A stretch of DNA of 64,000 nt from Bifidobacteriaceae bacterium (GCA_031278655.1 JAITJZ010000010.1:5881-69880); one strand, 5' to 3'. Positions 6,981 through 63,668 are shown, counted from the first letter of the stretch. Notes: generated from the sequence alone by a model not told the origin. Program-made: numbers and translations.

Positions 6981-7167
6981 CCTGAGCTTTTGCCGCCGCC
7001 GGCGACACTTGGACTTTGGGCCCAAAGTGCTGACGGGGTGGTGGCCATGATGCTAGGGTCGATTGTTGGCGCTGGCGGATCAACCCCGGCGCCTGTATCT
7101 ACCCAGTCCATATCAGTGGGTGGCCGGCCCCGCCAGGCCCGCCGCCATGGCAAACCCGCGCCGGTGA

Positions 7168-8202
<1,035 letters not shown>

Positions 8203-8268
8203 GCGACGCCTGAGCGGCCGCTGAGACGACGGGCGTCCGCCTGGGCCGGCGTGTAGGAGTTGAGGAAA

Positions 8269-9465: not shown

Positions 9466-9469
9466 GCCA

Positions 9470-10258: not shown

Positions 10259-10312
10259 GCCTGCCTCCTGAGGCGCGGCGGTCTGCGCGCTTGGGCGGCG
10301 CATGGCGTAAGA

Positions 10313-10564
10313 TTGGCGGCCGTGACTGTAGTGACCATTCTTTGCCAGGTGATACTGGTGGCGACCAGCGCCTTCCTGATCTTGCTCATCCTCATGCACA
10401 AGGGCAAGGGCGGTGGGCTTTCGGACCTGTTCGGCGGCGGCTTCTCGTCCAACCTGGGCTCGTCCGGCGTGGCCGAGAAGAACCTCAATATGTTCACAGT
10501 GATAGTGGGAATTGTCTGGATAACGATGGTGTTAGCTCTGGCGTTGATCCACAAGTTCACCTGA
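10313..10564 (+). CDS. secG: Preprotein translocase subunit SecG
   Basis: 83-aa two-TM protein with HKGKGGGLSDLFGGG, placed after tpiA as in many actinobacteria. Exact start uncertain (TTG 10313 or downstream GTG). Confidence 0.85.
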   Translation: MAAVTVVTILCQVILVATSAFLILLILMHKGKGGGLSDLFGGGFSSNLGSSGVAEKNLNMFTVIVGIVWITMVLALALIHKFT

Positions 10565-10593
10565 GCGGTGACAGATTTCAGGAGGCAGAGCAA

Positions 10594-10980
10594 ATGGCAG
10601 GTGGAAGTGCGATCCGGGGTTCGCGCGTTGGCGCGGGACCGATGGGCGAGGAGGAGCGGGGCGAGGTCGCGCCCCGCGTGACGATCTCATATTGGTGCAT
10701 CAACGGGCACGAGACGCGCCCGAGCTTCGTGGACGACCCGGGCACCACGGTGCCCGCGGAATGGGACTGCCCGCGCTGCGGGCTGCCGGCCGGCATGGAC
10801 GCGCTCAGGCCGCCGTCGCCGCCGCGCAACGAGCCTTACAAGACGCATCTGGCCTACGTCAAAGAGCGCCGCTCGGACGAGGACGGGGCCGAGCTGCTGG
10901 AGGAGGCGCTGGCGGCCCTGCGGGCGCGGCGGCGCGCCGCCGAGGATCCGGACGCCGCCAAAGCCGCGGCCGTCGGCTGA
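10594..10980 (+). CDS. rbpA: RNA polymerase-binding protein RbpA
   Basis: MAGGSAIRGSRVGAGPMGE...ISYWCINGHE...WDCPRCG...YKTHLAYVKERR matches the RbpA pattern. ATG 10594 preceded by AGGAGG. The track ORF start (10291) overlaps secG out of frame. Confidence 0.9.
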   Translation: MAGGSAIRGSRVGAGPMGEEERGEVAPRVTISYWCINGHETRPSFVDDPGTTVPAEWDCPRCGLPAGMDALRPPSPPRNEPYKTHLAYVKERRSDEDGAELLEEALAALRARRRAAEDPDAAKAAAVG

Positions 10981-11146
10981 AGCCGCCGGACCGGTTGCGC
11001 CCGGTCGCCCTCAGGCGCTGGTAGAGTTTTCGTCTGGCGCGCCCACCTGGGCGCCCCTGGGGCCTTAGCCATCAGTGTCGGCCCCACGCACCCCGCCCGC
11101 GCGGGCGTGCGCGATTCGGACTATGACGAACAGGAGAGACCCGGCA

Positions 11147-11776
11147 ATGACTTCAGTGCGCCGCGCGCGCCGCCAGGTGCGCGAATCAAGGGCTTTGGGC
11201 TTGGCCCTGACGCCAAAAGCGGCCAAATACTTCGACAAGCGGCCCTACCCGCCCGGCGAGCACGGGCGCGGCCGGCGCCGCACCGAATCCGACTACGCCA
11301 TCCGGCTGCGCGAGAAGCAACGCCTGCGGGCCCAGTACGGCCTGCGTGAGAAGCAGATCGTGCGCGCCTTCCAGGACGCCCGCAAGCAGCCGGGCCTGAC
11401 CGGCGAGGCGCTGGTGGAACTGCTCGAAGTGCGGCTGGACTCGCTGGTGCTGCGGTCCGGCTTCGCCCGCACCATCTTCCAGGCCCGTCAGGTCGTGGTC
11501 CACCGTCATGTGCTGGTCGACGGCAAACTTGTCGACCGCCCGTCCTTCCGGGTCAAGCCCGGCCAGGTCATCATGATCAAGCCGAAGTCGCAGCCGCTGG
11601 TGCCCTTCCAGGTGGCGGCGGCCGGCGCGCACCGCGACATTCAGGTCTGGCAGATTCCGGAATACCTGGACGTCAACTTGGAGCGCCTGCGGGCGCAACT
11701 GGTCCGGGCGCCGAAGCGCTCCGAGGTCCCGGTCACCTGCGACGTCCAACTGGTCGTGGAGCACTACTCCCGCTGA
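11147..11776 (+). CDS. rpsD: 30S ribosomal protein S4
   Basis: RLREKQRLRAQYGLREKQ plus an S4 RNA-binding domain (LVLRSGFARTIFQARQVVVHRHVLVDG). ATG 11147 with CAGGAGAG 9 nt upstream. Confidence 0.9.
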   Translation: MTSVRRARRQVRESRALGLALTPKAAKYFDKRPYPPGEHGRGRRRTESDYAIRLREKQRLRAQYGLREKQIVRAFQDARKQPGLTGEALVELLEVRLDSLVLRSGFARTIFQARQVVVHRHVLVDGKLVDRPSFRVKPGQVIMIKPKSQPLVPFQVAAAGAHRDIQVWQIPEYLDVNLERLRAQLVRAPKRSEVPVTCDVQLVVEHYSR

Positions 11777-11789
11777 CAAGGAGGCCCTT

Positions 11790-12221
11790 ATGACCGTCGG
11801 CGAGATCGCGGGCTTGATAGCGGCCGTCGCCTTCGTGGCCCTGGTTGGGCTGCTGGCGGTGCCGGTGCTGCGATTGGGGCGGGTGCTGGAGGAAGCCACT
11901 CGCTCGGTCAAGGAGTTGACCGAGCACACCCTGCCGATCCTGGACGAGGCGGCCACCACGGTGGCCGCCACCAACGGGCAGTTCGAGAAGGTCGACACCA
12001 TCACCACGGCGGCGGCCGACGTCTCGCAAAACGTCTCCGCCCTGACCGCGCTGGTCTCGGCCACGATCGGCGGGCCGCTGATCAAATTGGCGGCCTTCAC
12101 CTACGGCGTCAGAACCACCTTCGCCAAGCGCGCCGGCGCCCAGGGCGGCGCCGGCCGGTCCGGGCGCGGCCGCCACCGCACCCGCCGGGCGGGCGCCCCA
12201 GCTCCGGCAGAGGAACCCTGA
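11790..12221 (+). CDS. DUF948-like membrane protein
   Basis: N-terminal TM helix followed by a coiled region (RLGRVLEEATRSVKELTEHTLPILDEA), typical of DUF948 proteins found next to alaS. Confidence 0.7.
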   Translation: MTVGEIAGLIAAVAFVALVGLLAVPVLRLGRVLEEATRSVKELTEHTLPILDEAATTVAATNGQFEKVDTITTAAADVSQNVSALTALVSATIGGPLIKLAAFTYGVRTTFAKRAGAQGGAGRSGRGRHRTRRAGAPAPAEEP

Positions 12222-39432: not shown

Positions 39433-40458
39433 ATGCGAATCGGAGTTTTGACTGGTGGGGGAGACGTTCCGGGCCTGAACGCCGCGATCAGGGCGGTCGT
39501 CAAGCGGGCTGAGATGGAGTACGGGCACTCGGTGGTCGGGTTCCGCAACGGCTGGCGCGGCGTGGTAGAGGGCGACATCACGGCGCTGACCCGCGAGGAT
39601 GTGCGCGGGATTCTGCCGCGCGGCGGCACCATGCTGGGCACCGCCCGCTACCATCCGCACAAGAATGAGGGCGGGATCGACGGCGTCCTTTCGACCCTCG
39701 AGGCTGAGCGCGTCGAGGCGCTGATCTGCATCGGCGGCGACGGCACGCTCAAAGCCGCGCACAGGGTCGCCAAGGCGGGCGTCAAAGTGGTGGGCATTCC
39801 CAAGACCATCGACAACGATGTCGAGGGCACCGACCTGTCGATCGGCTTCCACACCGCCATCAACATCGCCACCGAGGCGATCGACCGCCTGCACACGACC
39901 GCCGAGTCGCACAACCGCGTCATGGTGGTCGAGGTCATGGGCCACACAGTTGGTTGGATCGCGGTCAACGCCGGCATCGCCGGCGGCGCCGACCTCATCA
40001 TCACCCCCGAGGAACCTTTCGACATCGAGGAGATCGCGCGTTTCCTGCGCCGTCGCCACCGTTCGCACGCGAACTTCTCAATCGTGGTGGTGGCGGAGGG
40101 CGCCGAGCCCGCCGAGGGCACTGACCTGCAGTTCTCCACCCAAATCGATGAGAAGGGGCGGATTGTGGCCGGCTCGATCGGCGAGCGGCTGATGATGGAG
40201 TTGAAGGAGCGCACCGGTTTCGACACCCGCCTGACGGTCCTTGGCCACGTCCAGCGCGGCGGCACGCCGACGCCGACCGACCGCATCCTGGGCTCGCGCT
40301 TCGGGATCGCGGCGGTGGACGCCCTGTCCAACGGCGCCTTCGGCGTCATGACGGCGGTCCGCGGCGAGGAGATCGTGCTGGTGCCGCTGGAGGAGATCGC
40401 CGGCAAGGTCAAGCAGGTGCCCGAGGACCTGGTGGAGGTGGCCCGCGCGCTCTGGTGA
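39433..40458 (+). CDS. pfkA: 6-phosphofructokinase (GGDGT / PKTIDND type)
   Basis: MRIGVLTGGGDVPGLNAAIRAVV, IGGDGT, PKTIDNDV and MGHTVGWIA motifs. Confidence 0.92.
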   Translation: MRIGVLTGGGDVPGLNAAIRAVVKRAEMEYGHSVVGFRNGWRGVVEGDITALTREDVRGILPRGGTMLGTARYHPHKNEGGIDGVLSTLEAERVEALICIGGDGTLKAAHRVAKAGVKVVGIPKTIDNDVEGTDLSIGFHTAINIATEAIDRLHTTAESHNRVMVVEVMGHTVGWIAVNAGIAGGADLIITPEEPFDIEEIARFLRRRHRSHANFSIVVVAEGAEPAEGTDLQFSTQIDEKGRIVAGSIGERLMMELKERTGFDTRLTVLGHVQRGGTPTPTDRILGSRFGIAAVDALSNGAFGVMTAVRGEEIVLVPLEEIAGKVKQVPEDLVEVARALW

Positions 40459-49396: not shown

Positions 49397-50428
49397 TCAG
49401 GCGGCGGCGAACAGAGGCGCGTGGGCGGCCAGCGTCTGCGGCGGCACGGTCTTGAGGGTGGCGGTGGCCTCGGCCAGGGAGACGGTCTCAATGGCGCCAC
49501 CGCGCAGAGCCACCATGACACCGCTCTGGCCGCGATGCAGGGCCTCGACGCCAGCGGCGCCAAGGCGCGTGGTCAACACCCGGTCGAAGGCGCACGGGCT
49601 GCCCCCGCGCTGGACGTGGCCCAGCACCACCGAGCGAGTCTCAACGCCCGCCAACTCCGCCAGCCGGCCGGCCAAGAGGCCGGCGATCCCGCCCACCTGG
49701 ACGTGGCCGAACTCATCGACCGGCGCGCCGCTGTCGCCCTCGACGGCGCCGGCGCGAGCCACCGCCCCCTCCGCCACCACCACCACCGCGTCACGCCTGG
49801 CCGCCACCAACGCGCCGACCCGCGCGGCGACATCGGGCAGAGAAAACTCAACCTCCGGGATCAAAGCGGCGGCGGCCGAGGTCGCCAAACCGACATGCAG
49901 GGCGATCCAACCGGCGTGACGGCCCATGACTTCGACCACCAAGGCGCGGTGGTGCGAGCGGGAAGTGGTCCGCAGGCGGTCCACCGCCTCGGTGGCGATC
50001 TCGACCGCGGTGGTGAAACCGAAGGTCACGTCGGTGCCAGAAAGGTCGTTGTCGATGGTCTTGGGCACGCCGACGCAACGCACCCCGGCGCCGGCCAGCC
50101 GGGCCGCGGCCCCCAAGGTGTCCTCGCCGCCGATCGGCATCAGCGCGTCGACGCCGTCCGCCGCCAACTGGGCCTTGATCCGATCGATCCGGTCGGCGCG
50201 GCCGGCGTTGGTGCGCGAGGCGCCCAGGATGGTGCCGCCGAGCGGCAGGATCTCCTCGACGTCGGGCACCCCGAGGGGCTGGCTGAGACCCTCAAGGGGG
50301 CCGCGCCAGCCGTCGAGGTAGCCGATGAAATCATCACCGTGGGCGCGCGCGCCCTGCAAGACGGCCGCGCGGATGACGCCGTTGAGCCCGGGGCAGTCGC
50401 CGCCGCCGGTCAGCAAGCCGATCCTCAC
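49397..50428 (-). CDS. 6-phosphofructokinase paralogue (GGEDT / PKTIDND type)
   Basis: MRIGLLTGGGDCPGLNGVIRAAV, IGGEDT, PKTIDNDL and MGRHAGWIA motifs. Overlaps the upstream aldolase gene by 4 nt. Confidence 0.9.
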   Translation of the reverse strand: MRIGLLTGGGDCPGLNGVIRAAVLQGARAHGDDFIGYLDGWRGPLEGLSQPLGVPDVEEILPLGGTILGASRTNAGRADRIDRIKAQLAADGVDALMPIGGEDTLGAAARLAGAGVRCVGVPKTIDNDLSGTDVTFGFTTAVEIATEAVDRLRTTSRSHHRALVVEVMGRHAGWIALHVGLATSAAAALIPEVEFSLPDVAARVGALVAARRDAVVVVAEGAVARAGAVEGDSGAPVDEFGHVQVGGIAGLLAGRLAELAGVETRSVVLGHVQRGGSPCAFDRVLTTRLGAAGVEALHRGQSGVMVALRGGAIETVSLAEATATLKTVPPQTLAAHAPLFAAA

Positions 50429-52442: not shown

Positions 52443-55400
52443 GTGATGACTGACCCGGTGTATGAGATCGACGGCTCTGCGCGCAGTTACTTCGAGGCTT
52501 TGTCGGAGTTTGACCGGCGTAATCTTGATTCCAGCGCGATCCCGACTTTCAAGGTCAGGGTCACCAATGCCACGGTGTTGAACCTGGTGCATCTGTTTTC
52601 GTGGCTTCAGGACCGGGACGGCGCCAATGCGGTGCAGCAGTGCAGGCTTGAGGTGGTCCTAGATCCTGCCGACCCGGAGCCGTACGCGCTGGCCGCGAGG
52701 GTCGCAGCGCTGCTGGGTTCGGAGGAGTGGATAAGGCGAATCGACAATTGGGACACCGCGGAGCATGCCGGGCGAACACGGCGAATCTTGCCGATGATCT
52801 CGATCAATGAGGATACCTATCAGGCGCTCGCCGATCCGGTCCGGAAATTGATCGGCCAGTCGAACGGATCGGAAGCCTTCAAAATAGTCCCTGAGGCGCC
52901 GCCGAAGAGCGACAAGAAAAACGAATCATTCCCTAGATTCGCCCTGCCCGAAGGGCTAGACAGTTCGGTGGCAGCGGTGATCGAAGTATGTGGACGGCTC
53001 CTGTTCATGATCGGTTCCGGAGATAAAGCCGAATCGAGGAGGAGGGTCGAATACAAGCGAAAAGTGTTGTTGAAACAAGATGAAGTTGGCCGCGAGGTTT
53101 TCCGCAGGACCGCAGATTGGCCTTTGCTGGCCTTCCTGCTCTGGACCGCGTTCGACAAAGCGGTCGATATTGCGGAATGTGATGAGCCGAAGCCGAGCCC
53201 GCTTGAAGGGCGGTGGTTGGAGCGTCTGGCCCAGCTCGAGCCGGACGTCCTTGATATCAGCGACGGATTGCTCCAGTTGGCGGAGAACGTTGTGGTCCAC
53301 GCGGGTCCCGACACATCGGAGGGCCGCGCGAAGGGCCGCGGCGTCCTAGCCCTGCGGGTGCACAGCCGGAAGGGCGAATGGCGAGACGGTCCGCTGGGTG
53401 AGCTTTATCCCAATTACTTCCTCGGACGCGACCGCCGTCGAATGATCAACGCGTGGCGCGAACCCAACTCCGGCGAAGATTGGCTGCGCGACCTGTCCAG
53501 CGACGATCTGCTGGACAGAGAATCACACCACCTGGGAGGGGCCGTCCAGCCCTCCTCGCCCGAGGAGCCCGAGGAGCCCGAATGGTGGCTTCGCAACCGC
53601 GCAGAGAGGGCCAGCCGTGAGAGCCGCCGTGGGCAAGTCCAGCAGTATTTGGAGGTCCGGCTAGCCGATCGCGGCGCCAGTGGGGTGGCGGCGACCTTTC
53701 GGGAACGCACTGAGAACGCCGACCTGAAGTCCATTGGCGACCTCCGCGGCTTTTTCGATCCGACGGCAAAGCAGCGGGAAGATTGGAGAACTTTCTCGGG
53801 CACACCTGTGAACGCCGTGAACCATTACGGCCTGGCATTGTTCGACTCGCTGCTCTCTGGCCTCGACGGGAGCCTTGGGGTGGCGAGCCGATCCCCCGAT
53901 GACGCTTGCGATATGTATTCGAGCAGCGGTGACGATCCTGACCAGGGCGGCGATGGCGCCAGCACGGCGGCATCCCTCGGCACACGCTATTCGCTCTTGA
54001 TACCGCTGCGGATGCGCCTGTCGCAGGCGGCGCCATTGGCCCATCACGCCCACGTCGACCTTCGCCTGCCCGCAGATGAGGAGGCCGAGCCGCTGTGCGT
54101 CGAAACGGTCGGCGCCGCGGACTGGAAGAGCTTTCGAGGCACGCTCGAAGGCTGTTCGCCGTCATCCCCCCAAACCAAGATCGGGCATGTTGAATCAGTG
54201 TCTGGCAGTGCCGTCGGCGCAACAGTCAACTGGGGTGTTGAACCGAGAATCGCGGTGTTTGACGCCAGCACGCTCAGCGGATACCAACTCGAAGTTCTGT
54301 GTAAGGCGATCTTGCTCTGGCTCCGCGGCAGGTCGACGACGCACGTGGCGATTCGTGTGCGGGACGAGCACCAGCTGCGCGTCTTGGTCCGGCTGCTGGT
54401 CGTGTTCTTCGACCGCGACGGTCAGAACGCGGCGCTTGAGGGCAGCCAGCTCTATCTGGTCGGTCCGCAGCCGGGTGACGAGTGGTGGCTCCCTGGCACT
54501 CATCTTGGTGACGCGGTCGCCGCGCAATTGAAGCTCTCCGCGGCACGGTCGGTGGGCGGGACCCTGACATCGCCGCTGACCGATGAGCTGACGCGGATGC
54601 TTGCCAGGCACCCCGGTGCGTCTCGGGCCTCGGCGGCGCCGCAGACGGTTCGCTACGAACCGTTTGACCTGAAGGTCAGCGCAGCCCCGAATTCTCCTGA
54701 GACGCTGTTTGATCGCGTTGCGCGGAAGGTGTTGGAGGCGGACATCCAAGACCCGTCAGGGCCGGGTTGCCGACTCGGGGACACGCACGTCCGGATTGGG
54801 TCGAAAGTGCACCTGGGCACCTTTTACGAGGCAGAGCTCCTATTTGGCAACCACTACTACGTCGATCGGTACGCCTGGCTTGTCCGGCGAGCGCTCAAAT
54901 TTCCGGAGCTCCCAGAAGACGAGGTAGCCGCGGTTGGCCAAGACGATGCCTGTTGCGTCATTGGTTATGAGACCTATTCGGAGATGTTGGTCAGGCGCGT
55001 CATCCAGCCGCGAGAGTTCGCTGACAAGCAGTGGATTTATGGGACTCTGGAGGCGGACGGTGACCGAATGCGGCTGCGCGGATTGGAGGCGATTAGCCGC
55101 GAGCCTTGGAATCCTGAGATGAAGCTTGTCTACCTGGTGCCAATTAGCACTACTATGTCCACCTTTCGCAAGATGGACAACGAAGTTCGGCGATGGTTCG
55201 CACAGACGTGGCCAAATTGTGGGCACGAGTTGCCCAAGCCAATCTGTATCACGGTCATCCATGTTCGTAGTGGCTCCGGCGCACAAGGTTCGAACCTAGA
55301 ACAGGAATTCTTCACCCAGCCCAACTCGGACATGAAATTGGTCAAGCTCCAGGAGCTCATCCAGCTCAAACCCCGGAAACCCCGGAAACCCCGGAAACCC

Positions 55401-55607
55401 CAACCCACAGCGACCTGGGTTCGCTACATCCATCAGGTGCAAGCCACCTGGATGGACCCCTTGGCCTGCTCTTATTGCTTCCCCAATGGGGGTTCTGCGA
55501 TCGAGTTGCCACTGGCCGAGCCGGGCAAGTCCCCGGTTGTGCTGTCGCAACTGTTTGGCCGCAAGCCTCAGCCGCCAAGCGCCCTTCGAGCGGATTCGCC
55601 GCGATGA
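52443..55607 (+). CDS. Island gene A: large cytoplasmic protein with GHKL (Bergerat-fold) ATPase motifs and a degenerate PRTase-like C-terminal module
   Basis: 1054 codons. AAGAGG sits 6 nt before ATG 52446 (GTG 52443 is also possible). N-box-like LLQLAENVVVHAG (aa 276-288), G1-like LADRGASGV (407-415), G2-like NHYGLALFDSL (460-470), closing strand GTRYSLLIPL (513-522). C-terminal CCVIGYETYSEMLV...KLVYLVPISTTMSTFRKM...CSYC. No TM segment. Confidence 0.85.
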   Translation: MMTDPVYEIDGSARSYFEALSEFDRRNLDSSAIPTFKVRVTNATVLNLVHLFSWLQDRDGANAVQQCRLEVVLDPADPEPYALAARVAALLGSEEWIRRIDNWDTAEHAGRTRRILPMISINEDTYQALADPVRKLIGQSNGSEAFKIVPEAPPKSDKKNESFPRFALPEGLDSSVAAVIEVCGRLLFMIGSGDKAESRRRVEYKRKVLLKQDEVGREVFRRTADWPLLAFLLWTAFDKAVDIAECDEPKPSPLEGRWLERLAQLEPDVLDISDGLLQLAENVVVHAGPDTSEGRAKGRGVLALRVHSRKGEWRDGPLGELYPNYFLGRDRRRMINAWREPNSGEDWLRDLSSDDLLDRESHHLGGAVQPSSPEEPEEPEWWLRNRAERASRESRRGQVQQYLEVRLADRGASGVAATFRERTENADLKSIGDLRGFFDPTAKQREDWRTFSGTPVNAVNHYGLALFDSLLSGLDGSLGVASRSPDDACDMYSSSGDDPDQGGDGASTAASLGTRYSLLIPLRMRLSQAAPLAHHAHVDLRLPADEEAEPLCVETVGAADWKSFRGTLEGCSPSSPQTKIGHVESVSGSAVGATVNWGVEPRIAVFDASTLSGYQLEVLCKAILLWLRGRSTTHVAIRVRDEHQLRVLVRLLVVFFDRDGQNAALEGSQLYLVGPQPGDEWWLPGTHLGDAVAAQLKLSAARSVGGTLTSPLTDELTRMLARHPGASRASAAPQTVRYEPFDLKVSAAPNSPETLFDRVARKVLEADIQDPSGPGCRLGDTHVRIGSKVHLGTFYEAELLFGNHYYVDRYAWLVRRALKFPELPEDEVAAVGQDDACCVIGYETYSEMLVRRVIQPREFADKQWIYGTLEADGDRMRLRGLEAISREPWNPEMKLVYLVPISTTMSTFRKMDNEVRRWFAQTWPNCGHELPKPICITVIHVRSGSGAQGSNLEQEFFTQPNSDMKLVKLQELIQLKPRKPRKPRKPQPTATWVRYIHQVQATWMDPLACSYCFPNGGSAIELPLAEPGKSPVVLSQLFGRKPQPPSALRADSPR
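55368..55401 (+). repeat. 9-bp tandem repeat (aaaccccgg x3.8) encoding KPRKPRKPRKP inside gene A
   Basis: Direct reading: aaaccccgg at 55368, 55377 and 55386, plus aaacccc at 55395. The period is a multiple of 3. Confidence 0.9.
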
Positions 55608-58600
55608 GCGCTCCCACCCAAGGCGGGCCGCTGGGCGGCCACCCCAATTGGCTGTTCGGTCTCAAACCGAACGCAACGCCACCAGATCGATGCAATAACG
55701 ATGCGCTGGTACGCGACGCCCTGTCCGACGTGTGCTACGGCCACCTGCGCTTGGGCCAGAACGACTTCGAGTTCGCGCTGAACATGGGCGCCTTTTTCAG
55801 CCACAACGAGCCCCGTGTCAGGGCTTGGCTCTCCCAGATCAGCAGCCCAGATCCGAAGCGGCCGCCAGACGGGCAAGCGTTCAACGTCCTGGTTTCGCCG
55901 CTGACGTCACGAAATGCCGCGTTTGTGGCCGCCGTCAACGAGGAGGTCTTCAAGGGCGCTGCCCAAGTGGTCGGCGTGGATGTCGAGGCCGAGTTCAAGG
56001 ATTCTTTCGCCGTCAGGTACGCCGATTTGCGCGCCCTTCGGAGAGACTTGGAAGGGACCGGGCTGAGGCTCGTCCTACATTACGTCGACGACGCCACCGT
56101 CCGCGGCCTCAGCCTGTTGCGCTTGCGCTCGCTGGTGACAGAGCTGTTCGGCGACCGGCGTCACGGCGGCGGCGAAGATTCCCAGAGGGCTGGGGCGCAG
56201 GTGTTTCATTCGGTGTTCGTGCTGGTGGACCGTTGGTCGCCGAACACCTGGAGGAATCTGCTCCAAGACTTCGATCCCCTGGTGCACAGCTACCTCGACA
56301 TCTGGGCGCCCCATCTCAACACGTTTACCAGCGTCTGTCCCGTGTGCCAGGTCAACGATCACCTGCACAAGGCCGAGGACGGCTGTGCAACGGCCCTGCT
56401 GGCGGGGGAAATCCGCTCTCTGCGGATGCGCGAGACGGAGCCGATCCGCTTTGACCGACTGATCGCGCATCAAGCCGAGCCCGCACAGGACCGCGGCGCC
56501 GCGAAGCCCAGGCTCATCCGTTGCTCGAATGGGCAACCTATGCCGGAGCCGGTCCCGGATAGCTGGAAGGGAAGACAAGAGGTCGGCCGTCGCCGCCTGT
56601 GGTGGCGACACCTGCTCACCTACGGGCTGAGACATCTCGGCAGCGAGCCGTTCGTGTCCGGCTCGGACCAGAGCGGCGGTGAGGTTTGGGAGAAGGACCT
56701 GATCAATTGCCCGTCGATCGTCGCCGCCTATCTGATCACAAAGCTGGACCAGATCGCTCGCGGTCGGCCGAGCGAAGTCCCGGGGACACCTGCGGAGCTT
56801 CCCGTCGATCATTTCGCGGCCGCAATCTGGGCCGCCACCACTGGCGAATTGGCGGACCGAAAGTCGGTCCGAGAGGCCGCGTTGGCCGTTGTCAACGGGC
56901 TGATCTTGACCCTGCTAAAGCCTCCGAGAGGTAATGGCGACTGGGCGGCGCCCCCGGCGCCGGGATGGACGGAGGAGCCAGTCCTGGCACAGGTCCAATC
57001 AGCCCGTGAGCAGATGCAGAACCGATGGGCACGCCTGGTCAAGGCACTGGATGGCTTGGCCAAGCAAAAAGAATTCGACCGTTCAATGAGCGACACAACG
57101 GCGTGGGAGAGCCTGCTGCGCTGCCTGATGCGAGCCACTTCAGAATTGGGCGGCACATTGCTGCTTCGTCGGGACACGATGATCCGGGTCTTCGCTTGCG
57201 GAGCCAGCCGCGGCGTGAATCTCCAGCGGCTGATGACCTACTACGTCTACTGCCTGAAGCTGCTGACAAGTCGCGGCCCGGATCGCGCCAAGTCGGCGTT
57301 TCTCGACTACCTGCTGCTCTCAGGGAGCGAAGTCCAGGGCAAGCCGACGAGTTTGCCGTCGCCGCAGGTCCCCTCCAGGACGGTTGGTCAACAGTTTGTC
57401 GATGCTCCGAGCAACAGGTTGGCTATTCCGGATGACATCAAGGCGCGGCTTGCCGAATTCGTGGACTTGGCCTACATCGAGAACACGAAGTGCCTGGAGG
57501 CAGTCATCGATGACATGGGGCCGCTCAGCGCTGGCCAGCCGTCAGAGGCAGATGGGCACGAATACCTGCCGGAGTACTCAGCCGAGTGCCTGACCGGGTG
57601 GCGTTGGCAGGCGGGCTCCGGGCCGGATCTAAACCAGGCGCATGAACTGGCTAGATTGCTCCGGGAGACGGCAGACCTCGTCAGCCCAAACCACCACTCT
57701 GACCCACACAGCGCTTACGACCGGCCGCTTTCCAAGTTGAATGAGCTGTGGGCGTTCTGCCTGGGAAAAGAGTCCGCCAAGTGCGAGGCGCTGCTCGCCC
57801 TGGAGACCCCCGAAGACACGCTCGCGCTGTCCAGCCTGGAGACGGCGCCGATCAGTGCCGGGAGTGCTCAGCCCGCATTCGTCTTGCCGTCATCCGCTTA
57901 CACACAATATGAAGTTGAGCTTGAAGAGAAACCTCGGCATGTCACTTTGGGCCAGTCTGGCGTGGCCCATGAGGTCTGCGCGGTTCAACAATTGGCGCAA
58001 GAAGCCAAAGTCTTCGAGGCAACGTGGCAGGGGACGATTTCCAGTGGGGGCCCTGTTGTTGGCCTGGGGCGGCAGCCCGTTGACGCGGGCGCCGGCACCC
58101 GTCCTTCGATTGTCTTCGGTTTGTCGGCGGCGCAGGAGTCGCAATACCCCGAGGCATACTGCCTGATCAGGCTCGGTTTGACTCCTGACCGCGGCGGCTC
58201 CACGGAGGCAACTCTATTTCTGCACGCGGGGCTCGAGAATGATGAAAAGGTGGACGCGGCCAAGCTGATGAACGCCGTCAGGATCGTGGCCATATTTAGA
58301 GGCAGAATGCTGGACAGACTCCGCTCCGAACAGCGGCGCGGTGTCCTTGACTCTGTCATCACAGGAAAGCTGATCGAGCAGGCTTACGTAAAACAGGGCG
58401 CTCTGGATCACGGTCAGCCGTCTGACAACATCGGGCAGACAACGGGCCTAGCCAAGTACATTGAAGAAGACACAAAGTTCGGTCTTGGCGGGGACGGCCC
58501 CGGCGGCCGGAAGGCCTACGCGCAGGCGCTGAGTGGATACGTCAACTCAGGCATAGCTCAACTCAACCGAGCTGTGGTCATCTATCGGTCGAGGTCCTCA

Positions 58601-59281
58601 ACCACGAGCCCGCAATCCGGTTCGCTCTCCGGTCTGCTCGAGTCGCTCGGGCCAAAGTTTGCCGCCGCCCTGCCGCCCCGCGCCGACCATACACTGACGA
58701 GGATCCTGAGCGCCTGTCGGTCCCTGCCGGGACTCCAGGATCAATCCAAACTGTGGTTGGGTCGTCCCCTCACGAAGGAGCGGCAGGAGGCCGTGGAAGC
58801 GGACGGGGACAGGGTCACGTCATGGATCAACAAGGTGTCAGGAGAGTTCTCGCTTCGGCAAGTCCCCAACTCCGATGGCGATCTGAAGTTGGTTCTCACC
58901 GACCTGGTCCACGTCACCGTCGTGGCCAGCCTGGTTGACAGCGCCGCCCGCCACGGCGCCGGACCGATTCTCGTGGAGGTGGATGAGCACGGATACCTCT
59001 ATGTCACCAACCAAGTCCGCGATGACTTCGACCTTGAATCGATCAGGCGGGGGTTGGCGAGGGACGCCGGCATCTCGCTGCCGGCGGTCGCCGACCTGTT
59101 CTACGAGTCTTCGGGGGATGATAGGAATACCACCGCAGCACATGGACAGCCACGGGGTGTTCGTATAGCATTCGCCGAAGGGCGCCCACCGCCGCCAGTG
59201 AGCTGGCCTGGGAGGCAGCATGACCTGCAAAGTAATAAGTGGCTGAGCGTGGGGGTGCCGCTTTTCCAGCGGTCGACCTGA
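55604..59281 (+). CDS. Island gene B: PRTase-like N-terminal module, long helical body, degenerate histidine-kinase-like ATPase C-terminus
   Basis: 1225 codons from ATG 55604 (ATGA overlap with the gene A stop). PRPP-loop-like LRLVLHYVDDATVRGLSLL (aa 154-172) then CPVC (245-248). C-terminal LVHVTVVASLVDSAARHGAG / ILVEVDEHGYLYVTNQV / AGISLPAVADLF / GVRIAF...WLSVGVPLF follows the N, G1, G2 order of HATPase domains, but the key Asn and Gly residues are replaced. Confidence 0.85.
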   Translation: MSAPTQGGPLGGHPNWLFGLKPNATPPDRCNNDALVRDALSDVCYGHLRLGQNDFEFALNMGAFFSHNEPRVRAWLSQISSPDPKRPPDGQAFNVLVSPLTSRNAAFVAAVNEEVFKGAAQVVGVDVEAEFKDSFAVRYADLRALRRDLEGTGLRLVLHYVDDATVRGLSLLRLRSLVTELFGDRRHGGGEDSQRAGAQVFHSVFVLVDRWSPNTWRNLLQDFDPLVHSYLDIWAPHLNTFTSVCPVCQVNDHLHKAEDGCATALLAGEIRSLRMRETEPIRFDRLIAHQAEPAQDRGAAKPRLIRCSNGQPMPEPVPDSWKGRQEVGRRRLWWRHLLTYGLRHLGSEPFVSGSDQSGGEVWEKDLINCPSIVAAYLITKLDQIARGRPSEVPGTPAELPVDHFAAAIWAATTGELADRKSVREAALAVVNGLILTLLKPPRGNGDWAAPPAPGWTEEPVLAQVQSAREQMQNRWARLVKALDGLAKQKEFDRSMSDTTAWESLLRCLMRATSELGGTLLLRRDTMIRVFACGASRGVNLQRLMTYYVYCLKLLTSRGPDRAKSAFLDYLLLSGSEVQGKPTSLPSPQVPSRTVGQQFVDAPSNRLAIPDDIKARLAEFVDLAYIENTKCLEAVIDDMGPLSAGQPSEADGHEYLPEYSAECLTGWRWQAGSGPDLNQAHELARLLRETADLVSPNHHSDPHSAYDRPLSKLNELWAFCLGKESAKCEALLALETPEDTLALSSLETAPISAGSAQPAFVLPSSAYTQYEVELEEKPRHVTLGQSGVAHEVCAVQQLAQEAKVFEATWQGTISSGGPVVGLGRQPVDAGAGTRPSIVFGLSAAQESQYPEAYCLIRLGLTPDRGGSTEATLFLHAGLENDEKVDAAKLMNAVRIVAIFRGRMLDRLRSEQRRGVLDSVITGKLIEQAYVKQGALDHGQPSDNIGQTTGLAKYIEEDTKFGLGGDGPGGRKAYAQALSGYVNSGIAQLNRAVVIYRSRSSTTSPQSGSLSGLLESLGPKFAAALPPRADHTLTRILSACRSLPGLQDQSKLWLGRPLTKERQEAVEADGDRVTSWINKVSGEFSLRQVPNSDGDLKLVLTDLVHVTVVASLVDSAARHGAGPILVEVDEHGYLYVTNQVRDDFDLESIRRGLARDAGISLPAVADLFYESSGDDRNTTAAHGQPRGVRIAFAEGRPPPPVSWPGRQHDLQSNKWLSVGVPLFQRST

Positions 59282-59321
59282 AAATGAAGAGATTTGTGAT
59301 TTGACAGATTGAGAGAAAACC

Positions 59322-59948
59322 ATGACCGAAAATCAGCCGTCATTCGTTGTAATTGATGACGATCCCGGGCAGGCTGAGCGAATCATGGCCCGGCTGAGCG
59401 ACATTTACCCTGGAGCGACGCCGGTCCGAGTCACTCCCAGCGGCGACACACAATCTCTCGACCGCGGCAACACGATTCCCAGGTCGGATGAGGATGCTCA
59501 GGGCTACGTGCCTGGCAGCACCAACTGGACGCGGTTCATTGAGTCCTTGAACACACTGGCCAGTGGGAATGGCGTCGGTGAGACCTTCGTCATAATCGAC
59601 ATGGTTCTAAATAAGAGCGATCAGAAGGCGTTCACCAATGAACTCAGAACCGGATTCGGCGTCTGGTATCCAAGAGCCGTGGTCGAGATCGTGGCCGCGC
59701 TGTTGAAGGACGGCGCGCAGAATCCTCCATGGATTGTCTTGACAAGTGCCTACCTCGGGTTTCACCCGCGTAACCTCGCTGATCGGCTCCGTGCGCTGAA
59801 GCCCCCTCCCGGCGGTGGAGATGATCAGATCTGCTGGATGCCTTTAGTCATGTTCACGCAGGCGAGCTGGTACTCTGACGCAGAGGTTAAGATGCACCTC
59901 CAGGGCCATCTTGGCCGCGTGTTTCAACCCGACCCGGTAAACAGTTGA
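59322..59948 (+). CDS. Island gene C: stand-alone CheY-like receiver (REC-like) protein with insertions
   Basis: 208 codons. SFVVIDDDPGQAERIMARL (acidic pocket), ETFVIIDMVL (candidate phospho-acceptor D93), PWIVLTSAY (T141/S142), LRALKPP (possible conserved K160-P). Confidence 0.75.
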   Translation: MTENQPSFVVIDDDPGQAERIMARLSDIYPGATPVRVTPSGDTQSLDRGNTIPRSDEDAQGYVPGSTNWTRFIESLNTLASGNGVGETFVIIDMVLNKSDQKAFTNELRTGFGVWYPRAVVEIVAALLKDGAQNPPWIVLTSAYLGFHPRNLADRLRALKPPPGGGDDQICWMPLVMFTQASWYSDAEVKMHLQGHLGRVFQPDPVNS

Positions 59949-61258
59949 CCGCCGCCGCAATGGCTGCGAACAGGTCGGCGGGCGCCCAGTTCGCGGATGC
60001 GGCAATGGCTGCGGTCTTGGACAAAGCGTTCAGGCCGGCCGTGCCGAGGCTCTTCCACTACACCACGCTCGACACCATGTGGAAGATCCTTGAGGGTCAG
60101 GAGCTGTGGGCCACGCACGCGCGATTCTCGAACGACGCTCAAGAAGTCGAGTTGGGCAAGAAGTTGTTGCTCGGCGGCACGAAAACCGATTCCGTGGATG
60201 AGCTGTTCAACCCGTTCGTGGTCTGCCTGTGCGAGAACGGTGACCTCCTCAGCCAGTGGCGGGCGTACGCGCGTGATGGCGTGGCGATCGAGTTGGCGTT
60301 CCCGCCGAGTTCAACAGTCAGAATTATCAAGGATCAGGATCAGGATCAGAAGGTCACCGGAGAGATCGACGGTCTGAGGCCGTACAGAGTGTTCTACGGC
60401 GATGCGGCAGTGTTGAACGATTCCGATCAGACGCACATCGCCGACAGCCAGATTGTGATTTCGTCGGCCGCGGTGACAGGGGACGGCGGGAGCGTCATCA
60501 AGGTAAGTGAACTCGGCGAAAGAGTCAGGAGTGCGGCTGAGACCGGCGGACTCTCAGAGGACGATTTGCTCAAAGCGCTGCTTCCGTACGTCAAGAGCAG
60601 CGGTTTCAAAGAAGAGAGCGAGTGGCGATTGGTCGTCGACCTGTCCCTCCCGGACTTCGCAAGGTTTCGCCAGGCGATCGGCTACCAGGACAACCCAAAT
60701 TTGCCGTCAACGAGGCGACCCTATTTGCGGTTGAAGTATGGGGCCGCCGGGTCCGGCGCCGATGGCGTCACAGTCGATGTCCCGCAGAAGGTCAGTCGTG
60801 CCTGGTCAGACTTTCAGCGTAAGACAGGCACGACGAAAGCGACTGGGCTCAAGAAGGAAGTGCTGCGCGAGTTGGGGAAACTGGGACCGCCGGTCAAGTT
60901 TCGGACACCTCCCGGCTATGGGCGACGCTCGGGCGACGAGACCTATGACATCTCGATCATCACGGAAAACGCCAAAGACGCGGAGGCGGTGTTCGAAGCT
61001 GTTGGGGCGGCGCTGTTGCCGCTCACCAGCGAGAGCCTGGGCGGCGAGGCCACCGACCCGGCGCTTGGCAACAAGGTCAACGTCTGGTGGGGCAACGTCT
61101 GGCCCATCCGTTCGATCCGAGTCGGACCGCACCCGAGGATCGACGAGGTGAAAGAGGCGATCACGCACTATTGCTCGACTCAGTGGTGGATTCGGCAGGT
61201 CAAGGTCGTCGGATCGAGCATTCCGTACCGTCCGCCGCGCAGGCAGGCCGGAGAGTGA
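59945..61258 (+). CDS. Island gene D: DUF2971-like protein
   Basis: 437 codons. TTG 59945 overlaps the gene C stop (TTGA); an ATG alternative lies at 59960. RLFHYTTLDTMWKILEGQELWATHARFSNDAQE, FVVCLCENGDLLSQWRAYARDGVAIELAF and KSSGFKEESEWRLVV follow the DUF2971 motif order. Confidence 0.8.
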   Translation: MTAAAMAANRSAGAQFADAAMAAVLDKAFRPAVPRLFHYTTLDTMWKILEGQELWATHARFSNDAQEVELGKKLLLGGTKTDSVDELFNPFVVCLCENGDLLSQWRAYARDGVAIELAFPPSSTVRIIKDQDQDQKVTGEIDGLRPYRVFYGDAAVLNDSDQTHIADSQIVISSAAVTGDGGSVIKVSELGERVRSAAETGGLSEDDLLKALLPYVKSSGFKEESEWRLVVDLSLPDFARFRQAIGYQDNPNLPSTRRPYLRLKYGAAGSGADGVTVDVPQKVSRAWSDFQRKTGTTKATGLKKEVLRELGKLGPPVKFRTPPGYGRRSGDETYDISIITENAKDAEAVFEAVGAALLPLTSESLGGEATDPALGNKVNVWWGNVWPIRSIRVGPHPRIDEVKEAITHYCSTQWWIRQVKVVGSSIPYRPPRRQAGE

Positions 61259-61446
61259 CGCGCTCCAACCGAGTCGTTGGGCGGCCCGCCCCGGCGCCGG
61301 GGACGCGGCGATGGTCACAGTTTGATTGCGCCAGCGCGTGACGCTGGCGCGGGGTGGTAAACTCGCCGAGCCGTCTTCGTGGCCTCGCGGCCGCTCGGGC
61401 GGCGTGTCCTGTCCGTTTCTATAACCAAAGACGAGTCTTACATTCT

Positions 61447-62919
61447 ATGACAACATCCCTACCCGCAGCAGTCTCTGAGGCCCCGGTGCCCGAAGTCGCC
61501 GTCAACGACATCGGCACAAGCGAAGACCTGCTGGCCGCCATCGACGGCACGATCAAGTACTTCAACGATGGCGACATCGTTGAGGGAACTGTGGTCAAAG
61601 TCGACCGCGACGAGGTCCTCCTCGACATCGGCTACAAGACGGAAGGCGTTATCCCGTCGCGTGAGCTGTCCATCAAACACGACATCGATCCCTCGCAGAT
61701 CGTCTCCGTCGGCGACAAGGTCGAAGCCCTCGTCCTCCAGAAGGAGGACAAAGAAGGCCGTCTGATCCTGTCGAAGAAGCGGGCTCAATACGAGCGCGCC
61801 TGGGGCGCGATCGAGAAGATCAAAGAAGCCGACGGCATTGTCACCGGCACCGTCATCGAAGTCGTCAAGGGCGGCTTGATCGTTGACATCGGGCTGCGCG
61901 GGTTCCTGCCGGCCTCGCTGGTGGAGATGCGGCGCGTGCGCGACCTGCAGCCCTATGTGGGTCAAGAGCTGGACGCCAAGATCATCGAACTCGACAAGTC
62001 GCGCAACAACGTGGTCCTGTCGCGCCGCTCCTGGCTCGAACAGACTCAGTCCGAGGTCCGCTCGACCTTCTTGTCCCAGCTCAAAGAGGGCCAAGTGCGC
62101 ACGGGCGTTGTCTCATCGATCGTCAACTTCGGGGCCTTCGTGGACCTGGGCGGGGTCGACGGACTGGTCCACGTCTCCGAGCTGTCCTGGAAGCACATCG
62201 ACTACCCGAACGAGGTTGTGCACGTCGGCCAGGAGGTCACTGTCGAGGTCCTGTCGGTCGAGCTCGACCGCGAGCGGGTCTCGCTGTCCCTCAAGGCCAC
62301 CCAGGAAGACCCGTGGCAGTTGTTCGCGCGCACCCACGCCATCGGCCAGGTGGTGCCCGGCAAGGTCACCAAACTGGTGCCCTTCGGCGCCTTCGTGTCC
62401 GTCGAGGACGGGATCGAGGGCCTGGTGCACATCTCCGAGTTGGCGGTGCGCCACGTCGAGCAGCCTGAGCAGGTCGTCAAGGTCGGTGAGACGGTCTTCG
62501 TCAAGGTCATCGACGTGGACCTGGACCGCCGCCGCATCTCGTTGTCCCTCAAGCAGGCCAACGAGGGCGTGGACCCGGAGGGCGACGATTCGACCTTCGA
62601 CCCGGCGCTCTACGGCATGGCCGCCGAGTACGACGACGACGGCAACTACAAGTACCCCGAGGGCTTCGACCCGGAGACGAACGAGTGGATGGAGGGCTTC
62701 GAGGCCCAGCGCCAAGCCTGGGAGGAAGCCTACGCCGACGCCTTGGCGCGCTGGCAGGCGCACAAGGCCCAGGTTTCGACCGCCCGCGCGGCCGACCAGC
62801 ACGCGGCCGTCGAAGACGGCACGGCCACGGACTACCGCTCCGAGTTGTCGCAGACCGAGGGCACCTTGGCCTCGGACGAGGCGTTGGCCGCCCTGCGGGA
62901 GAAGCTGACCAGCAACTGA
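61447..62919 (+). CDS. rpsA: 30S ribosomal protein S1
   Basis: Four S1 repeats (GDIVEGTVVKVD..., GTVIEVVKGGLIVDIG, GVVSSIVNFGAFVDLG, GKVTKLVPFGAFVSV) and an acidic C-terminus. ATG at 61447. Confidence 0.95.
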   Translation: MTTSLPAAVSEAPVPEVAVNDIGTSEDLLAAIDGTIKYFNDGDIVEGTVVKVDRDEVLLDIGYKTEGVIPSRELSIKHDIDPSQIVSVGDKVEALVLQKEDKEGRLILSKKRAQYERAWGAIEKIKEADGIVTGTVIEVVKGGLIVDIGLRGFLPASLVEMRRVRDLQPYVGQELDAKIIELDKSRNNVVLSRRSWLEQTQSEVRSTFLSQLKEGQVRTGVVSSIVNFGAFVDLGGVDGLVHVSELSWKHIDYPNEVVHVGQEVTVEVLSVELDRERVSLSLKATQEDPWQLFARTHAIGQVVPGKVTKLVPFGAFVSVEDGIEGLVHISELAVRHVEQPEQVVKVGETVFVKVIDVDLDRRRISLSLKQANEGVDPEGDDSTFDPALYGMAAEYDDDGNYKYPEGFDPETNEWMEGFEAQRQAWEEAYADALARWQAHKAQVSTARAADQHAAVEDGTATDYRSELSQTEGTLASDEALAALREKLTSN

Positions 62920-62942
62920 CGGGTCGCGGCGCCCGGTTTGGC

Positions 62943-62988
62943 GGGTGGCCGGTCGGGTTTCGGCTCGACCGGCCACCCGTTTTTTTTT
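62943..62988 (+). terminator. Intrinsic terminator after rpsA
   Basis: Perfect 13-bp stem: gggtggccggtcg (62943-62955) pairs with cgaccggccaccc (62966-62978). 10-nt loop, then a run of nine T (62980-62988). Confidence 0.9.
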
Positions 62989-63065
62989 CGCCCGATGCCG
63001 TGCCCCAAGTCACGCTCGCCCGCCCGGTCGCGCCGTGGGCGGCGCCGGCCGCATATGCTGGGGGG

Positions 63066-63668
63066 GTGTTGCTTGTGGCCCTGACCGGCGGGATCGCGGC
63101 CGGCAAGTCCGCGGCTCTGGCCTATTTGGCCGAACTCGGGTTCCCGGTGGTGGACTGCGACGCCTTGGCCCGCCTGGTGGTGGCGCCCGGAACGCCTGGC
63201 CTGGCGGCCGTCGCGGGCGAGTTCGGCCCGGGCGTCCTGGCCCAGGACGGCTCGCTTGATCGGGGCGCGCTGGGGCGGGTTGTGTTCGGCGATCCAGCGG
63301 CCCGGGCGCGACTTGAGGCCATCACCCACCCGTTGATTCGGGCCGAGTCGGCGCGCGCTCTTGGGCGCGCCCGCGCCGCGGGCGCGCGAGCCGCGATCTG
63401 TGACATCCCGTTGCTCCTGGAGACGGGCCAGGAGGGCGCCTTCGGCCTGGTGGTGACCGTGTCCGCGCCGGAGGCGATCCGTCTCGAACGGATGGCAGAC
63501 CGGGGTCTCAGCCGCGACCAGGCCCGCGCCCGTCTGGCGGCGCAGGTCGGCGATGAGCGCCGGGAGGCCGCGGCCGATGTGGTCTTGGACGGGGCCGGGC
63601 CGGTCGCGGCCCTGCGCCGGCAGATCGACCAGCGCCTGGTTCCGGCGATCGCCGCCGCCGCGTCCTGA
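63066..63668 (+). CDS. coaE: Dephospho-CoA kinase
   Basis: VALTGGIAAGKS P-loop, and HPLI and DIPLL motifs. GTG 63066. The track ORF start (62685) lies inside rpsA out of frame. Confidence 0.9.
   Translation: MLLVALTGGIAAGKSAALAYLAELGFPVVDCDALARLVVAPGTPGLAAVAGEFGPGVLAQDGSLDRGALGRVVFGDPAARARLEAITHPLIRAESARALGRARAAGARAAICDIPLLLETGQEGAFGLVVTVSAPEAIRLERMADRGLSRDQARARLAAQVGDERREAAADVVLDGAGPVAALRRQIDQRLVPAIAAAAS

Follow-up and report, generated by a model that had tools for sequence, protein, structure and literature searches.

We analyzed a stretch of 64,000 nt from a Bifidobacteriaceae bacterium (GCA_031278655.1, JAITJZ010000010.1:5881-69880; hereafter the window) that carries, upstream of rpsA, a block of four genes, here named A to D, which may encode a conflict system. 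Four open reading frames (ORFs) were re-derived on the + strand where a first-pass annotation of this DNA had placed them: gene A at 52446-55607 (1053 aa; alternative GTG start at 52443), gene B at 55604-59281 (1225 aa), gene C at 59322-59948 (208 aa) and gene D at 59945-61258 (437 aa). All features of A-D described below lie on this strand. The junctions were also as annotated: upon direct reading, A and B overlap by ATGA (55604-55607), B and C are separated by a spacer of 40 nt with C starting at the ATG at 59322, and C and D overlap by TTGA (59945-59948). The more likely start of A is the ATG at 52446, one codon past the GTG. The mechanical ORF of B extends back to a TTG at 55475, but we placed its start at the ATG at 55604 because the same ATGA overlap is found in a homologue with 40% identity (locus L004). 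Gene D contains a second possible in-frame ATG at 59960. A scan of the operon for promoters and terminators yielded nothing above shuffled expectation. The basis for reading the four genes as a single operon, which had been proposed earlier, is thus the spacing of the genes and their conserved linkage in other genomes.

The A-D block is compositionally foreign. The G+C content of 1-kb windows across 52.5-61.5 kb ranges from 0.587 to 0.650, relative to 0.68-0.76 on either side, and the G+C content at third codon positions (GC3) of A, B, C and D (respectively, 0.72, 0.75, 0.68 and 0.78) is below that of the flanking genes for phosphofructokinase (PFK), aldolase (FBA), DeoR and rpsA (0.85-0.90). 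Both measures agree with the drop in composition reported by the first-pass annotation. The genes for DeoR, PFK and a class-II aldolase lie upstream of the block, and those for ribosomal protein S1 (rpsA) and CoaE downstream. In three relatives whose rpsA genes are 88-89% identical (L025, L026 and L027), PFK is found only 133-241 bp upstream of rpsA and the A-D block is missing from this site. The orthologue of this rpsA-adjacent PFK (80% identity) is located at 39433-40458 of the window. Because the orthologous PFK adjoins rpsA in these three relatives, the window contains about 21 kb of extra DNA (40459-61350) where the relatives have 133-241 bp, and A-D is an insertion relative to them. The extra DNA comprises a sugar-acid catabolic cluster of native G+C content (40.5-52.3 kb) and, after it, the low-GC block A-D. 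This cluster encodes a PfkB kinase, a 2-keto-3-deoxy-6-phosphogluconate (KDPG) aldolase, dehydrogenases, an enolase-superfamily dehydratase, GntR, a major facilitator superfamily (MFS) transporter, a second PFK (49397-50428), an aldolase and DeoR. Since the cluster has a native G+C content and the A-D block does not, these results suggest that the two arrived as separate events.

We then searched for relatives of the encoded proteins. Word-indexed searches returned two relatives each for A and B, all from metagenome-assembled genomes (MAGs) of termite-gut-type Bifidobacteriaceae, and neither a B-based scan of GTDB genomes nor a first metagenome scan found any. An exhaustive HMMER profile search with the alignment of A was conducted over 1.84 billion sequences, with hits counted as cluster representatives. 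This search yielded 934 representatives at E <= 1e-3, 504 at E <= 1e-10 and 78 at E <= 1e-30. Proteins that appear as near-orphans in word-indexed searches thus have more than 900 cluster representatives in an exhaustive profile search, which calls for caution in annotation. No relatives of the family were found in IMG/VR, in 50,697 INPHARED phage genomes or in 72,556 PLSDB plasmids. The family is rare and widely scattered.

The lengths of these relatives changed our view of the unit. Most of the best 150 matches of the A profile (103 of them) are 1,900-2,550 aa long. Protein A aligns to the N-terminal ~1,000 residues of relatives of ~2,000-2,400 aa, and B aligns to residues 1060-2109 of the 2,139-aa protein P0009 (E 6e-36 and 3e-12). 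Since A matches the N-terminal half and B the C-terminal half of these relatives, the window carries a split protein of ~2,100 aa, of which A and B are, as judged from the alignments, the two halves. Because A and B form one protein in most relatives, the real unit is a three-gene module, and not the four-gene unit that the first-pass annotation had described.

The A/B split itself is shared with other genomes. The break is found at the same point and with the same ATGA overlap in L004, where A is 40% identical, and in L012, which indicates that the split is not a recent accident. In L004 both 4-nt overlaps (A/B and C/D) are kept at only 31-40% identity. These patterns suggest that the giant gene has been stably split in this actinobacterial lineage, at the boundary between two phosphoribosyltransferase-like (PRTase-like) modules described below. 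In another MAG (L001; JAIROU010000137, Cd354_bin95), the homologue of A is in turn encoded by two ORFs with a 4-nt overlap, one of 174 aa (2176-2700) and one for the rest (2697-5223), so that the giant protein there comes in three translationally coupled pieces. The break of L022 is located at another position (4678-7425 / 7379-12115). A distant fused member of 2474 aa (P0111, L011:1684-9108) presents a weak match to Metallophos (calcineurin-like phosphoesterases), which implies that some variants of the family carry an additional enzymatic domain. The A/B split and the three-way split of L001 mark domain boundaries that are useful for biochemical and structural work.

A split gene could also be a broken one. 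The dominance of fused forms among the best matches, the truncated appearance of protein P0004, the further breaks in L001 and L022 and two substitutions in the window copy (Asp for the N-box Asn of the terminal domain of B and Asp for His54 of B) are what one would expect of a frameshift in a decaying remnant that is no longer functional. This view is hardly credible, however, given that the same split with its ATGA overlap is found in L012 and at 40% identity in L004, that the four ORFs are intact with nearly all family-invariant residues present in A-D, and that the models of A and B are well folded.

The genes of the module are linked in nearly all of the loci analyzed. According to gene tables and a local hidden Markov model (HMM) scan, 17 loci have enough downstream DNA, and in 16 of them the giant gene is followed by a D-like gene. 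A C-like gene was detected in 10 of these 17 loci, and the other seven contain an ORF of 150-220 aa in the same gap of 500-600 bp. The linked loci span G+C contents of 0.31-0.66 and identities to A down to ~20%. The gene set thus recurs together across divergent genomes, and the ancestral form probably comprised three genes encoding a multidomain protein of ~2,100 aa, a receiver-like protein of ~180 aa and a DUF2971 protein of ~390 aa. The sole exception is L015 (7548-12906), in which unrelated small ORFs, and no D-like gene, follow the giant and C-like genes; its effector may have been lost or replaced.

The gene order is also kept in L004 (1-9364; JAITLE010000030, Bifidobacteriaceae MAG Pcl387_bin9). 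A permuted order C-D-A-B was considered for this contig and ruled out by an exact terminal overlap of 119 nt, which corresponds to the MEGAHIT k-mer: the contig closes into a circle of 9,245 bp that keeps the order A-B-C-D and contains only ~560 bp in addition. Read by eye, these ~560 bp contain on the minus strand a C-terminal remnant of a DUF4143-type ATPase (...EVDLVLE...GIEVKAS...). The closed sequence may represent a circular element or an excision product, or else a tandem duplication that has been collapsed.

We further analyzed the domains of the giant protein. Pfam recognized no domain in A, B or their fused giant homologues, and a profile of the whole fused family had no match in the PDB. 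Structures were predicted with AlphaFold2 (AF2) from alignments of 36-38 sequences, and the models reached a predicted local distance difference test (pLDDT) score of 79.5 and a predicted template modelling (pTM) score of 0.78 for A, and respectively 70 and 0.68 for B (residues 26-1225). The best PDB match of the A model in Foldseek was HGXPRT (6mxb; E 2.6e-3; probability 1.00), the top 29 chains were all type I PRTases, and the search of BFVD returned an OPRT (E 4.8e-3). The B model matched an OPRTase (4ohc_C; E 4.5e-3; probability 1.00; TM(target) 0.50), then HGPRTs and PyrR. The search of BFVD agreed with these PRTase-like results. When the two models are considered together, the top matches were HGXPRT, OPRT, UPRT and PyrR (probability 0.9-1.0; E 2.6e-3 to 0.4). 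The E-values are modest and the hits consistent, and each of the two models points to a type I PRTase-like fold. Since Foldseek gives no query coordinates, the two modules were placed by conserved motifs, supplemented by the strand-helix pattern of the model for A.

Module 1 (A residues 735-1036; 54648-55553) presents a beta-hairpin with H781/H789, a G840-Y-E-x-Y-S-E loop and a C1008-x-x-C1011 knuckle. The phosphate-loop-like sequence V898-P-I-x-S/T-T903-x-x-T906-x-x-K909 replaces the phosphoribosyl pyrophosphate (PRPP) motif and the acidic pair is missing, in line with the degenerate module predicted from the sequence by the first-pass annotation. Module 2 (B residues 40-260; 55721-56383) matches the other module of that prediction, with an intact acidic loop: in H159-x-V-D162-D163-x-I/T-x-x-G168-x4-R173 the acidic pair D162/D163 is kept, without a T-G-x-T phosphate loop. 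Its H47 is 100% conserved, position 54 is His in 96% of relatives and Asp in the window copy, and it further contains a P99...N104 loop, R210-x-S212 and C245-x-x-C248. The paired His before each fold and the CxxC after it would form an H2C2 metal clasp around each module. No match to Pfam Pribosyltran was found in A or B, and there was no significant internal duplication between A and B by BLASTP, nor between the two PRTase-like modules or the two ATPase-like regions by hhalign. Within module 1, a perfect 9-nt tandem repeat (AAACCCCGG x3.8; 55368-55401) encodes PRKPRKPRKP in a loop that is disordered or of low confidence in the model (pLDDT <50 at residues 971-986). The repeat is length-variable between close strains, since the 98%-identical P0001 has a shorter and different version.

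The remaining parts of the giant protein include two regions that resemble histidine-kinase-type ATPases. Residues 257-520 of A (53214-54005) contain the boxes of a Bergerat (GHKL) ATPase in canonical order: N box Q277-L-x-E280-N281-x3-H285, G1 D408, F box F436-F437, G2 H460-Y-G462-L and G3 G512-T513-x-Y-x-L-L-x-P520, with a helical insert of ~90 residues. N281, D408, H460, G462 and G475 are 100% conserved in the family alignment, and the topology of the model (helix-strand-[insert]-strand-helix-lid-helix-3 strands) follows the pattern of histidine-kinase catalytic domains. The comparison with the single EnvZ sequence by hhalign was not significant (P 0.04-0.07). Motifs and model topology therefore agree with the GHKL ATPase proposed earlier for A, but no HMM match or significant structure match accompanies them, and we regard a kinase-type ATPase as plausible here. 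The second region (B residues ~885-1225; 58256-59278), assigned from conservation and the model, combines long helices with a degenerate kinase-type ATPase-like domain. It includes H936, which is 100% conserved (codon 58409-58411), and N1136, conserved in 95%. Its terminal domain presents the same order of boxes as A in degenerate form (N-box position ...LVDSAARHG..., G1156-I-S-L, ...VGVPLF). A weak, non-significant Foldseek match joined the C-terminus of B to the core of CpxA that comprises the dimerization and histidine phosphotransfer (DHp) and catalytic and ATP-binding (CA) domains (4biz_C; E 0.49; probability 0.82), and hhalign against EnvZ placed the boxes in register without significance. 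The degenerate ATPase that had been suggested at the end of B is thus in agreement with motifs and topology, but again not with any HMM or significant structure match.

Three other regions were delimited. The N-terminal alpha/beta domain of A (residues 1-255; 52446-53210), delimited from AF2 secondary structure, has a fold that was not assigned. It varies among distant relatives or is missing from them, many matches aligning only from query positions ~110-430 on, and it constitutes the separate 174-aa gene of L001. A second alpha/beta domain of A (residues 560-730; 54123-54635; conservation and AF2), with near-invariant E616 and K620, showed no similarity to a receiver profile. In B, the long helical region that the first-pass annotation had anticipated is seen in the AF2 model as an all-helical region with conserved E626-N627 (residues ~290-700; 56471-57703).

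Gene C appears to encode a free receiver-like protein, as had been proposed. Members of its family carry hhhIDD at the N-terminus, D93 in a strand of the form hhhhD(h)xL and S142 in one of the form hhhhS/T. We compared 15 of them by hhalign with a receiver profile built from the sequences of CheY, Spo0F, PhoB, OmpR and NarL; this profile recognizes a real Response_reg protein, from L025, at E 1e-29, and that protein was subsequently included in it. The C family matched it with probabilities of 75-86% (P 1.7e-6 to 2.5e-5) over ~115 columns, pairing D12/D13, D93 and S142 with D12/D13, D57 and T87 of CheY. The 13 control comparisons, which used a reversed profile or other domains of the same system, all gave P >= 0.06. 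These results suggest that C is specifically receiver-like by sequence profile, with a conserved acidic pocket. More distant middle genes read ILVVEDE ... GILLDVxL ... IYIITS. Searches of the PDB with C, as a single sequence or as a family profile, gave no match. When the receiver profile and EnvZ were compared with the ORFs of at least 60 aa in the 64-kb window and in ~300 kb from L001-L024, no response-regulator or histidine-kinase genes were found.

The product of gene D is the only one with a recognized Pfam domain. It matches PF11185 (DUF2971) with 24.4 bits, above the gathering cutoff of 22, which confirms the DUF2971-like assignment of the first-pass annotation; the homologue from L004 scores 23.4 bits and three further homologues are weak DUF2971 matches. 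The motifs H38-Y39-T40, N63-D64, Y108 and E224-x-E226-x-R228 are kept in 12-13 of 13 divergent homologues (H38 in 12/13; Y108, E224 and E226 each in 13/13), and D possesses an additional conserved C-terminal region (W-P-I-R-S-I-x-V-G-P ... P-Y-R). A 2025 survey placed DUF2971, found in ~6,000 species, in the H-Y-E clade of ADP-ribosyltransferases (ARTs), nearest DarT, AbiGi and Tox-ART-HYD1, and described a variable His in motif I, a strict Tyr in motif II and an ExE motif III (PMC12522546). The H38, Y108 and E224-x-E226 motifs of D are exactly the pattern described for this family (PMC12522546). One of its members, the 316-aa protein Aristaios, makes Lactococcus resistant to phage (PMC11381338). 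D is thus predicted to be a DarT-like ART and a putative effector. The view of D as an effector unrelated to known ones does not stand, given that its family is predicted to be DarT/AbiGi-like and has one antiphage member (PMC12522546, PMC11381338). A profile of the D family found no relatives in the PDB and no receiver domain (P 0.37 against the receiver profile), and the homologue of L008 has a weak match to the PADLOC candidate PDC-S31 (E 7.5e-5).

In other genomes the module often adjoins defence or mobile-element genes, which are the usual company of defence systems. L007 presents ParA/ParB upstream and DUF3801, a TraG-type coupling protein and Maff2 of a conjugative element downstream. 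A ScoMcrA-like HNH gene (type IV restriction-like) neighbors L008, and L009 lies among two integrases, PDDEXK, an SMC-like ATPase and an AAA_11/12-DUF2726 helicase. In L010, SIR2_2 is located upstream and pEK499_p136 and PHD_like downstream. Upstream of L005 are a DNA methylase and a HATPase_c_3 protein, with HNH downstream. These upstream genes (L005:1142-6994) encode the DNA methylase, an 895-aa HATPase_c_3/HATPase_c protein and a 681-aa protein without Pfam match, and look like a separate MORC-type restriction-modification-like system. In the window, the mechanical ORFs of the two genes downstream of the block are probably too long (61354-63668): that of rpsA starts at a GTG at 61354, when the alignment with its homologue starts at 61504 (residue 20 of the relative's S1), and that of coaE starts at a GTG at 62685 and overlaps rpsA, when its alignment starts at 63066.

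Such neighborhoods are also compatible with a payload of mobile elements, either a toxin-antitoxin-like addiction module in which D would be the toxin and A/B/C its control, or a conjugation factor in the style of polyvalent proteins. The conjugative element around L007, the integrases flanking L009, the 9,245-bp circle of L004 with only the four genes, the patchy distribution and the foreign composition are in its favor. We nevertheless consider this reading quite improbable, because no relatives were found among the 72,556 PLSDB plasmids, the 50,697 phage genomes or IMG/VR and because several loci, including the window, have no mobility genes within reach; moreover, one module could serve both addiction and defence. 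Conversely, the kinase-like and receiver-like parts and the position in the window beside sugar-metabolism genes and rpsA could suggest ordinary cellular signalling, i.e., an atypical two-component pathway that would control endogenous ADP-ribosylation or nucleotide metabolism and be unrelated to conflict. This is very unlikely for a block that is missing from the same site in close relatives, has an atypical GC3, belongs to a rare family (934 representatives among 1.84 billion) and is found elsewhere next to genes for restriction, SIR2, integrases and conjugation, among which no metabolic theme recurs.

We therefore propose, with a probability of about 0.5, that A-D represents a copy, obtained by horizontal transfer, of a conflict system that has not been described and whose role would be anti-phage defence, abortive infection or a closely related form of element addiction. 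More tentatively, it could represent a new family of immune systems composed of a giant sensor with a kinase-type ATPase and two metal-clasped PRTase-like modules, a receiver-fold adaptor and a DarT-like ART, whose sensor would have been repeatedly split into two or three coupled genes in Actinomycetota. In the conflict-system reading, A and B would assemble into the sensor/regulator, comprising the N-terminal ATPase domain, the two tandem metal-clasped PRTase-like modules, a helical scaffold, the invariant-His segment and the degenerate ATPase-like domain. The trigger would be infection, or else the binding of a nucleotide or ribose phosphate to the PRTase-like pockets. The triggered ATPase/kinase-like activity would alter the state of C, most simply by phosphorylation of D93, and C, translationally coupled to D, would then free or activate D. 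Finally, D would use NAD+ to ADP-ribosylate a nucleic acid or an essential protein, stopping replication.

Several observations weigh against this proposal. PADLOC-DB v2 presents no match for A, B or C, nor for the fused homologues and their partners other than the weak PDC-S31 match of one D homologue. The neighbors within the window are metabolic and housekeeping genes, and no tRNA, integrase or flanking direct repeats were found bounding the island. The sample of neighborhoods is small (~7 loci with annotated neighbors). Comparisons of the ATPase region of A with Pfam and PDB HMMs gave no support, HATPase_c was matched by one of 25 ATPase-region sequences of the family (at E 0.22), and GHKL proteins appeared in the Foldseek search of BFVD at non-significant ranks only. 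No canonical H-box or HisKA/DHp domain was found in A or B. In the PRTase-like modules, the acidic pair is absent from the first, where a phosphate-loop-like sequence replaces the PRPP motif, and the T-G-x-T loop is absent from the second. C has no conserved Lys at the K109 position, Pfam Response_reg matched neither C nor 10 middle-gene products, and the middle gene of the most distant loci shows no recognizable homology to C. A true His-Asp phosphotransfer is uncertain because C lacks both the receiver Lys and a Pfam Response_reg match.

Some of these observations would be explained by a conflict system wired through nucleotides, without a phosphorelay. In this scenario, D would make an ADP-ribosylated product or a molecule derived from ADP-ribose (ADPr), C would be a cRec-like hydrolase, and the PRTase-like modules would bind or convert a ribose-phosphate product as a sensor, a signal synthase or an immunity component. 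The cRec proteins are receiver-related enzymes with two Asp that have been proposed to process ADPr-1''-2''-cyclic phosphates and that were never found with a histidine kinase (PMC9503650). C presents the acidic residues of receivers without the Lys and without a Response_reg match, it is translationally coupled to D, the two PRTase-like folds are better supported than any other domain of A or B, and no H-box or DHp domain was detected. A cRec-like enzyme role for C, instead of that of a phospho-acceptor, is a real alternative. The scenario as a whole remains unlikely in our view: the family contains kinase-type motifs and an invariant His, when cRec is reported never to accompany a histidine kinase (PMC9503650), and neither module has a complete PRPP-binding motif.

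If our proposal of a horizontally acquired conflict system is true, A-D would be a defence or abortive-infection system whose sensor of ~2,100 residues has no annotated domain in the libraries searched. It would provide a candidate regulator for the DUF2971 ART family, so far mechanistically unstudied, and would connect immunity based on ADP-ribosylation with signalling parts of the kinase/receiver type or with receiver-fold ADPr enzymes. The PRTase-like modules could then sense ribose-phosphate or nucleotide ligands, which would be a new use of this fold.

Finally, we compared A-D with known systems. Single-sequence searches of A-D against Pfam, NCBIfam, PADLOC and the PDB found nothing beyond DUF2971 in D, and we found no published description of this gene set; without a match in PADLOC or to a characterized system, the view of the first-pass annotation that A-D is not a described system holds. 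The single possible lead is a figure legend in the DefensePredictor paper, on a prediction, not validated, that combines HATPase and REC domains. The loose likeness to Detocs suggested by the same annotation is only partly retained. Detocs, which is found in defence islands, consists of the histidine kinase DtcA, the buffer receiver DtcB and the effector DtcC, in which an N-terminal receiver is joined to a nucleoside-phosphorylase (PNP) domain, and it resembles A-D, as predicted here, in a three-gene logic of a kinase-type sensor, a free receiver-like protein and a nucleotide-acting effector. However, neither A-D nor the fused homologues with their partners match any Detocs model in PADLOC-DB v2. 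The sensor here is ~2,100 aa long, contains two PRTase-like modules and shows no HisKA/DHp that could be detected. A single receiver-like protein stands in place of two receiver domains, and the effector differs, D being DUF2971 ART-like only, without receiver or nucleoside-phosphorylase domain.

Classical two-component systems resemble A-D in the order of the N, G1, F, G2 and G3 boxes, which are putative in A-D, and in a partner that appears CheY-like here, with a DD...D...S/T pocket. They differ in that the present proteins have no HMM match to HisKA, HATPase_c or Response_reg, no equivalent of K109, no output domain on the receiver and apparently no membrane sensor domain, and in the patchy, horizontally moving distribution of the family. 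The type I PRTase-like fold is shared with PyrR, PurR and ComFC and with the PRTase effectors of retron type III and ShosT. In ComFC, a Cys-containing metal knuckle is associated with the PRTase fold; it is an N-terminal four-Cys zinc finger, whereas the putative clasps of A and B consist of a His pair before the fold and a CxxC after it. PRTase domains are reported in defence systems (retron type III and ShosT). In contrast to these regulators and effectors, A and B present two tandem and mutually complementary degenerate modules inside a giant protein, without a Pfam Pribosyltran match.

The closest comparisons for gene D are with toxins and effectors of the ART type. DarTG consists of DarT, which ADP-ribosylates single-stranded DNA, and the macrodomain protein DarG. 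DUF2971 is similar in sequence to DarT, a HYE-type ART (PMC12522546), and the likely output would be an NAD+-dependent ADP-ribosylation halting replication. No macrodomain antitoxin (DarG) was found by Pfam in A, B or C, nor among the neighbors of the homologues, and control would here fall to the giant ATPase/PRTase-like protein and the receiver-like protein. D also differs from DarT by its length of 437 aa with a large conserved C-terminal extension and by matching Pfam DUF2971 only, and not Pfam DarT. AbiGi of the AbiG system is ART-like, as is predicted for the family of D. Aristaios, a single-gene antiphage system of lactococcal plasmids, shares its Pfam domain with D, in which the H-Y-ExE motifs are intact. 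However, Aristaios is a stand-alone protein of 316 aa, whereas the DUF2971 gene described here is strictly linked to two or three partners and encodes extra conserved regions.

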